Positions 53,580 through 59,245 are shown, numbered from the stretch's first letter. The stretch is DNA of 64,000 nt from Candidatus Hermodarchaeota archaeon (GCA_048885865.1 JBHLLF010000016.1:1-64000), one strand, 5' to 3'. Numbers and translations are program-made. The notes: generated by a model not told the origin, from the sequence alone.

Positions 53580-54017
53580 CTATAGCCCCTTCTCGTAAAG
53601 TCCCTTGCCTACTGCGGGAGCACCAACAGTGAAGAGCACAAGGTATACGGTGCCCCATAATGGGTCGAAGGTTATCCACCTACTCATCACTAGGGTCCAT
53701 ACAACAAATCCCAAAGTAGCCATCACAAGCTGAACCTTGATGGACTTGACATGTTCCATGTTTAGGGGGCTTTCCTCCTTAGTGATGCCAGCAACTACTA
53801 GAGGAGTAAGAATAAGGAATAATAGATACACAAGCGGCATCTCTCCCGTTCGTCCTGCAGCGACAAACATCTCCTCAATCAACTTGTATCCGGCAATCAC
53901 GGGGGCTGGCACATACTTGATAAGAATGCCAAAGTAATCATCGGGCTTATCAGGTACAAGGACTGTTGCTTCTGTGGGAGCATCAATCATCTTTCTCGTT
54001 ACAACTTTGAGACCCAT
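53580..54017 (-). CDS. Hypothetical 4-TM membrane protein
   Basis: DDYFGILIKYVPAPVIAGY followed by hydrophobic segments. Confidence 0.7.
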   Translation of the reverse strand: MGLKVVTRKMIDAPTEATVLVPDKPDDYFGILIKYVPAPVIAGYKLIEEMFVAAGRTGEMPLVYLLFLILTPLVVAGITKEESPLNMEHVKSIKVQLVMATLGFVVWTLVMSRWITFDPLWGTVYLVLFTVGAPAVGKGLYEKGL

Positions 54018-54111: not shown

Positions 54112-57054
54112 TCAGAGATTGACGCCTTTCTTTCTCAACCGACGCTTGTAGAGCTCAACCCCAACGATTGCTGGAAGTGAAAACAGGAGAACTATCAACC
54201 AGTCAATGTAGGTGAGAGGCATGAAATAGAAGTCTAGGCCGAAAGGTGCAAGAATCTCCTGAGCCAGTGGTACGTACATCAACAGGTAATGCGCCAGGTA
54301 TATGAGACCGAGGAAGATTGTGTATCGATAGGTGCCTGGTTCTCGCAGACTTTTGCCAATTCCCATGTTTATTCTACGAATGCTGAGGACAATAGTACTC
54401 TCAACCAGGAGAATTACTGATAGCATCATCACTGCAGCCTTGGCTGCCTCAATGGGGACAACGAATCCAGTTGAACCATAGAAGCCCGCGTGGTTCTCCG
54501 GGACAACAGTGATTATGCCCCACCACCCAGTCAGGGTGAGCATGTAGACCATAGCTGCTCCAAATATCATCAAAACCACATTCAATGCCATGAACTTCGC
54601 CAGCGGTCTTGGAATGATTTCTTCGCTATCCCTTGGTTTCTCTTCCATAGCTCTAGGTGAGGTCTTGTCGAATACCAAAGCTAGTCCTGGGAACGAATGC
54701 GTGGTCACAACCAAGTAGAGGCTCTGCCATGTGGTAAGCATGATAATGGCGGCGGGTAGGATAAAGAGAGCACCAAAGAAGAGGATGCTCTCGAACAGGT
54801 TGATGGCTATGTAGAAGTAGATCATCATTCTGATCTTCTGGAAGAGACCCCTTCCCTCATGGACTCCTGTGACGATTGAAGCAAAGCTGTCATCAGTTAT
54901 CACTAGATCTGCAGCCTCTTTCGCCACGTCAGTACCCGTAATCCCCATCGCGATGCCAGCATCACTCATTGCTAGAGCGAGTGAGTCATTGACACCATCA
55001 CCCGTCATTGCGACGACGCGTTGTTGGTCCTGGTAACGTTCAACAATCACTTGCTTGTGCTCAGGATTCACACGAGCAAACACATTTACTCGCGGAAAGT
55101 CATCATCCTTGACATCGTAGACATCTTGACCTTCAACTACTAGAGAATTCTGACCATAGATTCCAAGATCCTCTGCTATTGTCTTGGCTGTCGCTGCGGA
55201 GTCACCGGTTATCATAACCACGTTGATGCCTGCACTGTGGCATTCTTCAACTGCGTGTTTCACACCTTCTCGTGGAGGGTCAACAATGCACGCAAAGCCA
55301 AGGTATGTCAGGTCACTCTCCGCAACTTCCCGAGCATCCTTCTCAGGAGGCAATGCATCCATTCTCTTCTTAGCAAGCGATATGACCCTGTAGCCTCTTG
55401 CCGCGTAACCATCGACTAATTGCTTAACTCTCTGCTGTGCCTCAGATGTGAATGTGGCTAACTTCTTGCCATTCCCGATGGTAGTACATCTCGGGAGTAG
55501 GACTTCGGTCGCACCCTTTGCATAGGAAACGAACTTTGCACCATCCTGACAAATTCGGGACATCCTCTTTAACTCGGACTCAAACGGAAACTCCTCAATC
55601 ACCTTATAGCGCTCTCGAATAAGCTGCTCATCCACCCCACTCTTTCTAAACAATGTCAGCAATGCTGCATCCGTTGGATCTCCTAGGGGTTCCCAAACCG
55701 TCCCCTGGTCGGGAATCTCTTTCAAAGCGATCTCTGCGTCATTGTTGATGCCACCACATGTGATGAGGTCGAGCAAATGAGGCCATGCCGCGACATCAGA
55801 AACAAGCGACTGTTCAGCAGTGTTGCTAGTAGGGGCACCTAGCTTGTAAATTTCGCCCTCTGGTTTGTAGCCATCACCTGTTACAGTATAGAGGAACTCG
55901 GTGTCCCAACAATGCGTCACAACCATTTGATTTCTTGTGAGTGTACCAGTCTTGTCTGAGCAAATCACGCTCACTCGACCCAGGCTTTCCACAGCAGAGA
56001 GGTCTCTGATTATTACCCCCTTCCTTGCCATGGCAAGAACACCTGTCAGAAGAACAATGGTGGTCAGGAGTGGAATGTTGATGGGCATGATAGTCATTGC
56101 ACGTGTTATCCCTGCAGTGATTCTACTCGCGATAATCTCCATAATTTCTTGAAAGCCAGGGGCAATGAAAATTGGAATCTCCTCACCCAGGATCAATGGC
56201 TGGATGAAGAGCTGCCAGAGCACAGAAGTGGCCATCAAGACAATAGCCGCGATTCCAAGATACTTTGCAAGAAGATTGACCTTCTTTCGCAGTGGAATAT
56301 CTCCCGTATTCAGTTCACCTAGAGTACCCTGAATCTTTCCGATTTCAGTTCCGCCGCCCGTCGTTGTAGTCAAGACCTTTGCAGATCCAGTCGCGACGAA
56401 TGTTCCGAAGAACACCATGTTGTGCATGTCTGTCAATGGGGCATCTTCTGCTGCTTCATCACTTGCGCTCTTCATCACTGGCACGCTTTCACCAGTGAGA
56501 GACGCTTCGTTAGTGGTGAGATTAGAACATTGCAGAATTCTAGCATCAGCTGGAATCTTGTCACCTTGTTCCAGAATGATGATGTCGCCAGGAACTATCT
56601 CAGTAGGTGTGATGTTCATCTCTGAGCCGTCGCGCAATACACGTGCTTCACCAAGTGATAATTTCTCCAATGCCTCCAACTTCTTCTGAGCTCGGTATTG
56701 CTGAAAGATGGCGACAAGGGAATTTACAATGACAATGCCAAGCCAAACCAGAGCTTGGCCCAGTTGGTTGTCTGGCGATGGAAATAGATAGGCTAGAAGA
56801 ATCAGTGCAGCTGAGCTTATTATATAGATGACAATTAGCCAGTTCAGAATCGGAGCAAGATAGACCTGCCAAAACGAGCCACGAATCTTGGGTATCTCGT
56901 TGGGGCCATATTCGTCCTTTCGAGACTTGACCGCACTCTTACTCAGACCTCTATCTGGGTCTACATCAAGCTCCTCCAGGACAGCAGGAAGAGGCAGGGA
57001 GTGATAGAGATTGCGTGATTGAACAGCAGTCTCTTGGGCAGTGTCCGCGGTCAT
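54112..57054 (-). CDS. P2-type ATPase with atypical transmembrane site (PINIP)
   Basis: TGES, DKTGT, KGA, DPPR, TGD and GDGVND motifs; M4 reads MPINIP and M6 reads VVTTHSFP. Confidence 0.93.
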   Translation of the reverse strand: MTADTAQETAVQSRNLYHSLPLPAVLEELDVDPDRGLSKSAVKSRKDEYGPNEIPKIRGSFWQVYLAPILNWLIVIYIISSAALILLAYLFPSPDNQLGQALVWLGIVIVNSLVAIFQQYRAQKKLEALEKLSLGEARVLRDGSEMNITPTEIVPGDIIILEQGDKIPADARILQCSNLTTNEASLTGESVPVMKSASDEAAEDAPLTDMHNMVFFGTFVATGSAKVLTTTTGGGTEIGKIQGTLGELNTGDIPLRKKVNLLAKYLGIAAIVLMATSVLWQLFIQPLILGEEIPIFIAPGFQEIMEIIASRITAGITRAMTIMPINIPLLTTIVLLTGVLAMARKGVIIRDLSAVESLGRVSVICSDKTGTLTRNQMVVTHCWDTEFLYTVTGDGYKPEGEIYKLGAPTSNTAEQSLVSDVAAWPHLLDLITCGGINNDAEIALKEIPDQGTVWEPLGDPTDAALLTLFRKSGVDEQLIRERYKVIEEFPFESELKRMSRICQDGAKFVSYAKGATEVLLPRCTTIGNGKKLATFTSEAQQRVKQLVDGYAARGYRVISLAKKRMDALPPEKDAREVAESDLTYLGFACIVDPPREGVKHAVEECHSAGINVVMITGDSAATAKTIAEDLGIYGQNSLVVEGQDVYDVKDDDFPRVNVFARVNPEHKQVIVERYQDQQRVVAMTGDGVNDSLALAMSDAGIAMGITGTDVAKEAADLVITDDSFASIVTGVHEGRGLFQKIRMMIYFYIAINLFESILFFGALFILPAAIIMLTTWQSLYLVVTTHSFPGLALVFDKTSPRAMEEKPRDSEEIIPRPLAKFMALNVVLMIFGAAMVYMLTLTGWWGIITVVPENHAGFYGSTGFVVPIEAAKAAVMMLSVILLVESTIVLSIRRINMGIGKSLREPGTYRYTIFLGLIYLAHYLLMYVPLAQEILAPFGLDFYFMPLTYIDWLIVLLFSLPAIVGVELYKRRLRKKGVNL

Positions 57055-57271
57055 TAAAGTCCCTCTTGTTGCTATTGGGCAAAAGGATAGTGTGCAGATA
57101 AATCAACTTGTGCCCTACAGCACCCACATCATGGCAACAGATTCCTCCATGAACGCACAGTTCCATTAAATGGTTTCACCGTGTTTCCAGAATCCTGATG
57201 CAATAATACCGTTGTCGATAGGTTCATCTATTAAAAAATCTGAGTCGAAACAGATGGCGCTGGTGCACGCT

Positions 57272-59245
57272 ATGTTTGAATACATCGATTCCCCCTACCC
57301 CTATTATGAACCACGACCTGAGAAGAAATCTAGTAGTCTCAGAATAATAGCAATCATGATTATAGTGATGCTTGTTGCGTCAGGAGGGCTTTTCCTTCTT
57401 CTACCCATCGGTGATTTAATCCCTGGTCCACAAGAGCCTATTAAGGTGGCAATAATCGACTCCGGAATTGATAGCGACTTTACAATCGAGGGGAGAATGG
57501 GGGCTGAACAGAGCTTTGTATTGCCTCAATATGGATACCCCTTGGCAGAAACCGCTGTTAGTGATTCCAAACCTGACGGGAGTCAACATGGAACTATTGT
57601 GGCCAAAGCAGTTGCTGCCAATAGCGCAAATGCAGTAATACTCAACGCAAAAGTCCTAGCTAGCACAGGAATAGCTACTACTGGAGCAGTCGTTGCAGCG
57701 ATATACTGGGCAGTGGACCAGAACTGCAGTGTCATTAATCTAAGTCTGGGCGCAACGCCCGGGGTTGGCGACCCAATTGAACAGGCTGTTGAATATGCGT
57801 TTAATCGAGGGGTTGTGGTTGTGGCGGCTGCAGGAAACGAGGGAGACAATGGACTTGCTGGCAATACGATCAATACTCCAGGGGTATTTGAACACGTCCT
57901 CTCTGTAGGGGGACTAGATATCTTTGGGGAACCTGCAGATTACACAAGCTATGGACCTACATCAGCGAGATATATGAAACCAGATCTATGCGCTCCAGGA
58001 TACTTTGATTCTGGCAACTCGCGATATTTTGGCACTAGTTTCGCAACACCAAGAGTAGCTGCAGCAGCGGCGGAGCTTATGGCCCACAGTATTAGGAATA
58101 ACGTCACATATACGCCAGGTGCCATCATGACCGCTTTGCTGAAAGGAGCTGATCCTCTTGAGCACCCGGAATACGTTGTGGGTGCCGGAAAATTGAATCT
58201 CGAGACCTCGAAATCCCTCATGTTTTCGACACTTGTGGAGGGGGGTCTTCCTGCAATCTCATATGCCCATCCGAGGACACTCCCCCTTGACTTCGAAAGG
58301 TTGTTCTATGGAGACAATTACACATTCGACATAAAGCTGCTCACTGCTGGCTATACAACCTTTGACATAGATGTCACTGCAAATGCTCTTGGTGTCTTCG
58401 ACATGCCCGGACAGGTGACCATCAATCAGACTGGTGCTGTTCCACTAAACATCTATGTGCCAGATTCAGGTCTATCAAGCTATCAGGCAACAATCGAGTT
58501 CATTTCAGATGACTTTGGAAGCACGACTCTCGATGTTCAGTTTGGAGCTTCTGTTGCGGCAGCTCGTGTTGCCTTTGACATCAGCTTCACAACTTGGTGG
58601 ATGGATACAACATATGGGCAGTTCAGGGACTTCTATAGAGTTCTCACACAGAATGACATCTCAGTCACCGAGATTAGGGATGAGTCTGAAACCGACCTGG
58701 CCTATTTGCAGTTGTTTGACGCGGTTGTTCTTCTTGATCCATTTGTCTGGGACGACAATGAAACGGACCCATTAGACTCTGTGATATTCTCAATGCCATT
58801 TGCTCAAGAAACCAAACAGGCGTACCAGGACTATTATGACTCGGGTGGAGGGCTCTTTGTCACTGGACTATCAAATGCATCATTAGATGTTGCCAAGCTC
58901 AATGACTTCATAGACTGGACAGGATACTCTCTCAGCTCTACCCTTGTTTCTGATGGGAATAATCCAGTTGAGGCAACTCAGGTGACTGCTCATATAATCA
59001 CATCAGGTGTTGGGAGCTTCGACTATCTTGGGGCAGCTGTCATTGAACCTCCAGGTGCAACGACTCTTGGGAGATATGGCGGCAATGTTCTGCTGAGTGT
59101 GTTAGAAGATGCAGGCGGTGGAAGACTTGTCGTAACAGGCACGAACTATTTCATCGACAACTGGGGCATCAATGGAGATTACTCCTCAACATCGAACGAC
59201 CGACTCAGCCTTAGAATTGTGCAATGGCTCGTGGGTTTGCTGTGA
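57272..59245 (+). CDS. Membrane-anchored S8 subtilase with C-terminal GATase/DUF4350-like domain (site-1 protease-like)
   Basis: N-terminal TM; IIDSG, HGT, AAGN and GTSFATP catalytic motifs; C-terminal RVAFD..FRDFY..GGGLF..GRLVV. Confidence 0.88.
   Translation: MFEYIDSPYPYYEPRPEKKSSSLRIIAIMIIVMLVASGGLFLLLPIGDLIPGPQEPIKVAIIDSGIDSDFTIEGRMGAEQSFVLPQYGYPLAETAVSDSKPDGSQHGTIVAKAVAANSANAVILNAKVLASTGIATTGAVVAAIYWAVDQNCSVINLSLGATPGVGDPIEQAVEYAFNRGVVVVAAAGNEGDNGLAGNTINTPGVFEHVLSVGGLDIFGEPADYTSYGPTSARYMKPDLCAPGYFDSGNSRYFGTSFATPRVAAAAAELMAHSIRNNVTYTPGAIMTALLKGADPLEHPEYVVGAGKLNLETSKSLMFSTLVEGGLPAISYAHPRTLPLDFERLFYGDNYTFDIKLLTAGYTTFDIDVTANALGVFDMPGQVTINQTGAVPLNIYVPDSGLSSYQATIEFISDDFGSTTLDVQFGASVAAARVAFDISFTTWWMDTTYGQFRDFYRVLTQNDISVTEIRDESETDLAYLQLFDAVVLLDPFVWDDNETDPLDSVIFSMPFAQETKQAYQDYYDSGGGLFVTGLSNASLDVAKLNDFIDWTGYSLSSTLVSDGNNPVEATQVTAHIITSGVGSFDYLGAAVIEPPGATTLGRYGGNVLLSVLEDAGGGRLVVTGTNYFIDNWGINGDYSSTSNDRLSLRIVQWLVGLL

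Follow-up and report, generated by a model that had tools for sequence, protein, structure and literature searches.

The window analysed here is a stretch of 64,000 nucleotides from a Candidatus Hermodarchaeota archaeon (GCA_048885865.1 JBHLLF010000016.1:1-64000), and it contains the gene of a P-type ATPase in which the intramembrane ion site of the P2A Ca2+ pumps appears to be remodelled. The encoded protein (Table 1) is an intact P-type ATPase. It probably belongs to a distinct, mostly Asgard-archaeal subfamily that stands beside the P2A Ca2+ pumps, and its cargo is most likely a small cation that is not Ca2+, the identity of this cation and the transport direction being deduced from the sequence. 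An earlier note on this DNA had read the protein as a P2-scaffold ATPase with a flippase-like PINI motif, which is not a Ca2+ pump and may carry lipid or organic cargo.

Five Pfam domains were found in the 980 residues (Cation_ATPase_N, E1-E2_ATPase, Cation_ATPase, Hydrolase and Cation_ATPase_C), which is the full P2-type set, and the AF2 model has ten transmembrane (TM) helices (pLDDT 84.6, pTM 0.76). The motif positions in the open reading frame (ORF) were checked by coordinate with a script, which confirmed the P2A-like catalytic motifs TGES, DKTGT and GDGVND that had been noticed earlier. The superfamily model TIGR01494 (274 bits, cut-off 62), together with DKTGT, TGES, GDGxND and the domain set, places the protein within the superfamily of P-type ATPases. 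Since all catalytic motifs are intact, a normal E1/E2 phosphoenzyme cycle would be expected.

Residue equivalences were read residue by residue from HMMER alignments with two references, Listeria LMCA1 and the P2C pumps. In the LMCA1 alignment the M4 residues P-I-N-I fall on P-E-A-L, with I325 at the Glu and N326 at the Gly of the PEGLP motif, and the M6 sequence LVVTTHSFP falls on INLVNDSLP. In the P2C alignment the two Asp of M6 are matched by V782 and H786, in this order, and the Asn and Glu of M5 by N752 and E755. With respect to SERCA, I325 stands for E309, N326 for G310, V782 for N796, T785 for T799 and H786 for D800. The V782 position is an Asn in M6 of the P2A pumps and an Asp in the P2C pumps. 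The earlier note was right in reading MPINIP for PEGLP in M4, with PINIP at exactly 56071-56085, and LVVTTHSFP in M6, and also in the loss of the E309, N796 and D800 ligands, to which I325, V782 and H786 align. Its statement that the ion site is replaced holds for these three ligands, but it overlooked N752, E755 and E885 of site I, which remain. E885 in M8 was aligned with R795 of LMCA1, a position which we take to be that of SERCA E908.

According to these alignments, no more than half of the ion site is lost, site II being gone and the site I ligands N752, E755 and E885 being kept. M2 carries a Gln at a position where the PEGLP pumps have an invariant Glu (36 of 36), presumably SERCA E109, and no acidic funnel residue was found in M1. 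The cytoplasmic path has thus lost negative charge throughout (Q119, N71), and not at site II alone. Metal-binding tails and His-rich or Cys-rich stretches were not evident in the pump sequence.

The PINIP/His combination is a family trait and not an odd allele. All 121 sequences with at least 66% identity carry IMPINIP, and none of them departs from N752, E755, T784, T785 and H786. The earlier note had proposed this comparison of orthologs as a check on its reading; the case that would have refuted it, orthologs with PEGL beside a unique PINIP allele, was not encountered. In a full scan over 1.84 billion cluster representatives, about 40 clusters (50% identity) showed P-[IVLFWM]-N-[ILF]-[PV] in M4, N..E in M5 and x-H-x-x-P in M6, and all matches outside these clusters were PEGLP / N..E / NLVTD. 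The clade spans down to about 35% identity, with the catalytic motifs and the rebuilt site invariant or nearly so; DKTGT is invariant in the clade alignment.

Conservation was counted in 38 rows of the clade versus 36 rows of PEGLP pumps. The residue after the M4 Pro (E309) is Ile in 29, Val in 3, Phe in 3, Trp in 2 and Leu in 1 of the clade rows, whereas it is Glu in 34 of the PEGLP pumps. The following residue (G310) is Asn in 35 of the clade and Gly in 31 of the PEGLP pumps. At the N796 position of M6, the clade has Phe (12), Tyr (10), Val (4) and others, and the PEGLP pumps have Asn (32) or Asp (4). The D800 position is His in 37 clade rows; in the PEGLP pumps it is Asp (31) or Glu (3), that is, acidic in 34 of 36. 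As far as is known, the M6 Asp is near-universal in P3 pumps as well. The M5 residues are shared by both groups, with Asn (N768) in 34 clade rows and 33 PEGLP pumps and Glu (E771) in 38 and 33, respectively. The M8 position (E908) is Glu in 36 of the clade and mostly Gln (22) or Glu (10) in the PEGLP pumps. When the TM helices were screened for clade-specific conserved residues, N326 and H786 stood out, and only these; they are the two changes that define the clade, which the earlier note had not recognised.

The position of the clade was analysed in a maximum-likelihood tree of 77 rows (LG+G4, 910 columns, quick search). Besides the 38 clade and 36 PEGLP rows it contains a single P3B-like row, and two P1B rows serve as the outgroup. 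The clade was monophyletic (SH-aLRT 100, stem 0.29) and split from the 36 PEGLP rows; how it is connected with the PEGLP rows and the P3B-like row is not resolved by the tree. Of the phylogeny proposed in the earlier note, this tree covers the P2A side. All NCBIfam subtype models scored the pump below their cut-offs, in the order IIA2 (454 bits), IIA1 (411), IID (408), IIB (384), IIC (362), IIIA (324), IIIB (308), P5 (229) and P4 (101). The cut-offs are 798 for TIGR01522 (454 reached) and 703 for TIGR01116 (411 reached) among the P2A models, 645 for the P2D ENA-type model TIGR01523 and 615.5 for the P3A model TIGR01647. With two more clade members, IIA2, IIA1 and IID were likewise on top and P5 and P4 far below. 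The pump does not fall into P1B, as its M4 has PINIP and not CPx and the model has ten helices instead of 6-8 TM segments.

A Foldseek search with the AF2 model gave SPCA1 and SERCA as the best matches, followed by P2C pumps. With the clade profile, the Protein Data Bank (PDB) sequences of LMCA1 scored 737 bits, SERCA about 713, SPCA1 701 and the P2C pumps 575-600; M5-M10 alone gave no match to the PDB, and nothing further was found in the ESM Atlas. Taken together, the absence of the site II ligands, the scores below the P2A cut-offs and the separate clade bear out the earlier claim that this is no canonical Ca2+ pump. In the databases the closest proteins, from Thorarchaeota or Promethearchaeota, are annotated as Ca2+-transporting ATPase. 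The clade is large and apparently undescribed: our literature searches found no description of a PINIP/His clade, and one survey of Asgard transporters lists only a 'putative Ca2+ ATPase' (PMC7997004).

The distribution was scanned with one genome per species. Patterns derived from the clade alignment were the generic DKTGT and GDGVND and recovered ordinary P2A pumps, so they were replaced by an exact DNA pattern for MPINIPLLTT. This was found in Thor-, Hermod-, Odin-, Heimdall- and Lokiarchaeia (including Lokiarchaeum ossiferum), Atabeyarchaeia and Asgardarchaeum, and also in Nitrososphaeria, Bathyarchaeia and two 'bacterial' records. The M6 His was present in every such locus whose contig reaches M6. 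Some TACK archaea are thus among the carriers. Cluster names extend the clade to Korarchaeota and Helarchaeota, and a locus search with the basal member P0151 (PFNFP/PWNFP subclades) found no close relative. The hidden Markov model (HMM) of the clade was run on 151 Asgard genomes that are at least 80% complete, and 143 of them gave a match at E <= 1e-180. Because canonical paralogs reach 634-886 bits with this HMM, a safe assignment requires E = 0 (above about 1000 bits); about 103 of the 151 genomes have such a member, and several families have none among the genomes searched.

The 'Aerophobetes' contig L095 (NJBP01000013.1) is probably mis-binned, since it is 97% identical over 6.6 kb to the Promethearchaeota contig L152. 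The Dehalogenimonas copy (L153, CP139473.1) carries MPINIP and TAHAIP. It is part of a complete chromosome and has bacterial-type neighbours (a response regulator, a PAS protein and a BadF/BcrA ATPase), so that it looks truly transferred, likely from archaea to bacteria. Tandem paralogs of the clade occur on Loki and Heimdall contigs; in the pairs at L152:4909-7941 and L137:4553-7492, from Promethearchaeota and Heimdallarchaeota, each paralog shows P-I-N-[IL]-P together with the M6 His.

The genome of the window (87% complete) encodes two canonical P2A-type pumps with PEGLP/PEGLV and NLATDG/NLVTDG (contigs C2:90165-92876 and C89:4571-6895) and two CPC-type P1B pumps (contigs C11 and C1). Export of Ca2+ and soft metals would therefore already be covered, and the presence of the canonical paralogs makes the PINIP gene that of an extra specialised pump and not of a decayed sole Ca2+ pump.

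In the proposed mechanism, site II would be filled by hydrophobic side chains, with I325 for E309 and V782, a position that most relatives fill with Phe or Tyr, for N796. A His takes the place of D800, the bridging Asp between the sites, and an Asn that of the Gly of PEGL. A single buried site, whose geometry we infer, could then be formed by two Glu (E755, E885), the His (H786) and one or two Asn (N326, N752), and the usual Post-Albers cycle would move a small cation through it. As substrate, H+ or a monovalent cation is tentatively favoured, at somewhat less than even likelihood, because charge is removed along the whole path and the Glu/His/Asn group could relay protons or provide a counter-ion built into the protein. 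P3A pumps use Asp, Asn and Arg for these functions. A borderline transition metal (Mn, Fe, Co, Ni or Zn) is the next choice, possible but doubtful. Ca2+ is an unlikely substrate and a lipid a very unlikely one; to our knowledge, site II is kept by every Ca2+ pump. A bolder proposal, which we regard with considerable reserve, is a new P-type subtype with a substrate or mechanism unseen in P2 pumps, for example an electrogenic H+ (or Na+/NH4+) pump with a Glu-His-Asn relay that would energise the membranes of most Asgard cells.

Several points weigh against transport of H+ or another small cation by a distinct subfamily. Sites that bind hard monovalent cations seldom contain a His, and two Glu with a His would suit a divalent metal too. 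The tree was built without eukaryotic P2B-D, P3A, P4 and P5 references. No neighbour family is common to the subclades and the genomic context gives no consistent clue, and Rfam found no riboswitch or other RNA in the window or in four related loci.

If the cargo were a transition metal, the Glu2-His-Asn site would bind Mn2+, Fe2+, Co2+, Ni2+ or Zn2+, and the pump would export the metal or load it onto extracellular enzymes. A His with two carboxylates and an Asn is a typical ligand set, as in ZIP, CDF and P1B-4 sites, and in the core subclade a Met precedes the M4 Pro. This Met, however, is not conserved in the basal subclades, tails or stretches for metal binding are not evident, and the genome already has the two CPC-type pumps. 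Metallopeptidase genes (M1, M29) adjoin the pump in two subclades, but this pattern was recognised after the fact and does not hold consistently; a metal pump is an explanation that we consider conceivable, with doubt. The protein could also still pump Ca2+ (or Mg2+/Mn2+) with a site I-like pocket only, as N752, E755 and E885 are SERCA site I ligands and the database annotation is Ca2+-transporting ATPase. In addition, a divergent membrane-anchored subtilase lies next to the pump in 35 Thorarchaeote loci, and subtilases often need Ca2+. The characterised single-site Ca2+ pumps (LMCA1, PMCA and SPCA), on the other hand, are all known to keep site II and not site I. The present pump has lost the bridging D800 and the acidic residues of its funnel, the genome has two canonical paralogs and the scores are far under the curated Ca2+-pump cut-offs, and we regard a Ca2+ pump of this kind as improbable.

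A flippase-like transporter of lipids or organic compounds, possibly tied to the origin of the P4 ATPases, is the idea of the earlier note. In its favour are the Ile after the M4 Pro, as in PISL of P4, and the Asgard-wide occurrence of the family. The flippase-like character of the PINI motif was not upheld: the sole shared feature is the hydrophobic residue after the Pro, which ranges from Val to Trp in the clade and is also found in P3A H+ pumps, and M4 shares with PISL the Ile only. The P4 hallmarks are missing, as the earlier note had itself observed, since the A domain reads LTGES and not DGET and M5 reads INLFE without the Lys. With the P4 model TIGR01652 (cut-off 431 bits) the pump scored 101 bits, two other clade members 96 and 89, and the PEGLP paralogs of the same genome 106 and 86. 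Since these scores match those of ordinary PEGLP paralogs, the clade has no special P4 affinity, which speaks against the suggested bearing on P4 origins. The structure model, another check proposed earlier, was closest to SPCA1/SERCA, with no P4 structure among the best 50 fold matches; the comparison concerns the fold. CDC50 (PF03381) gave no match in the 87%-complete genome, though the control genomes were silent as well. The conserved buried polar residues E755, E885, H786, N326 and N752 point to a small polar or charged cargo, and a flippase is highly improbable. A non-transporting sensor or regulator, for which nothing specific was found beyond the loss of the canonical site, is more improbable still, as the catalytic motifs and the rebuilt site are kept across the whole clade.

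Among the known systems, the pump shares with the P2A Ca2+-ATPases (LMCA1, PDB 6zhf/6zhh/9euq; SPCA1/PMR1; SERCA1/2) the ten-helix P2 build, the N- and C-terminal cation-ATPase domains, the catalytic motifs and the N..E of M5, and these are its best sequence, profile and fold matches. It differs from them by Ile for E309, Asn for G310, a hydrophobic residue for N796, His for D800 and Gln for the funnel Glu, by its scores below the cut-offs and by its separate clade. From the P4 flippases (TIGR01652) it differs in overall sequence similarity as well as in the hallmarks named above. With the P3A H+-ATPases it has in common an M4 of the form P-hydrophobic-x-hydrophobic-P without Glu, but it has a His and not an Asp in M6 and no Arg in M5. 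The buried protonatable residue paired with an Asn recalls what we take to be the N106/D684 pair of AHA2 in P3A, which is a lead and not a test. The P2D ENA-type Na+/K+ efflux ATPases are represented by the third-best NCBIfam model (TIGR01523), and ENA pumps, as far as is known, have neither the Glu of M4 nor the Asp of M6 either.

In Thorarchaeota the pump gene lies between the divergent S8 subtilase gene (35 loci, at 45-95% subtilase identity) and panB (26 loci). In the window the subtilase gene is present, and a small ORF follows the pump, with an RBS-like GGAGG ahead of an internal ATG at 54016. This ORF was ruled out as a conserved partner subunit, because it occurs only in three near-identical Thorarchaeote loci. 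Other subclades have as neighbours an M29 aminopeptidase with a LonB/C-like protease, an M1 aminopeptidase, an ADP-ribosylglycohydrolase, the transcription termination factor FttA or an Atg22-like MFS transporter. In a single Heimdallarchaeote case (L156:3599-5263, plus strand) an MthK-like K+ channel (Ion_trans_2 and TrkA_N) lies 47 bp upstream of the pump on the same strand. In Dehalogenimonas a signal-peptide peptidase (A22) adjoins the pump. Across the loci L129, L151, L103, L162 and L153, peptidases of differing families thus stand beside the pump by subclade, namely S8, M29, M1, LonB/C-like and A22. This recurrence was recognised after the fact, and since these genomes are rich in peptidases it may be due to chance.

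Table 1. Features of the pump gene and its neighbours, in positions of the 64,000-nucleotide window
Feature	Position	Strand	Remarks
P-type ATPase gene, member of the PINIP/His clade	54112..57054	-	single ORF, 980 aa (P0001)
M1 A67-P68...N71	56842..56856	-	x-Q-F-x-D/N in PEGLP pumps; no acidic funnel residue
M2 Q119	56698..56700	-	invariant Glu in PEGLP pumps (36/36)
A-domain TGES (T187-S190)	56485..56496	-	dephosphorylation motif; not P4-type DGET
M4 PINIP (P324-P328)	56071..56085	-	I325 at PEGLP Glu, N326 at Gly; LMCA1 alignment
DKTGT	55942..55956	-	phosphorylated Asp is D367; invariant in clade alignment
Hinge GDGVND (G685-D690)	54985..55002	-	
M5 NLFE (N752, E755)	54790..54801	-	site I ligands kept (SERCA N768/E771; Na,K-ATPase N776/E779); LMCA1 and P2C alignments
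M6 LVVTTHSFP	54688..54714	-	V782 at N796, T785 at T799, H786 (54697-54699) at D800
M8 E885	54400..54402	-	aligned with LMCA1 R795; clade-profile alignment to PDB sequences, domain 3
S8 subtilase	57170-59245	+	N-terminal membrane anchor (residues ~57-80); divergent, 115 bp from pump
Small ORF, 146-156 aa	53580-54050	-	predicted membrane protein, no Pfam match; 60 bp downstream of pump

In conclusion, a whole old clade has exchanged the M6 Asp for a His and the M4 Gly for an Asn and has erased the site that is kept by the known Ca2+ pumps. About two thirds of the Asgard genomes sampled carry the clade, many of them with several copies, and the annotation is that of a Ca2+ pump everywhere. It sheds no light on the origin of the lipid flippases. 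Knowing what it transports would give a well-studied superfamily a further specificity class and would correct the models of ion homeostasis for the closest archaeal relatives of the eukaryotes. Should the pump be an electrogenic energiser moving H+ (or Na+/NH4+), it would parallel, in prokaryotes, the P-type pumps that energise the plasma membranes of eukaryotes.

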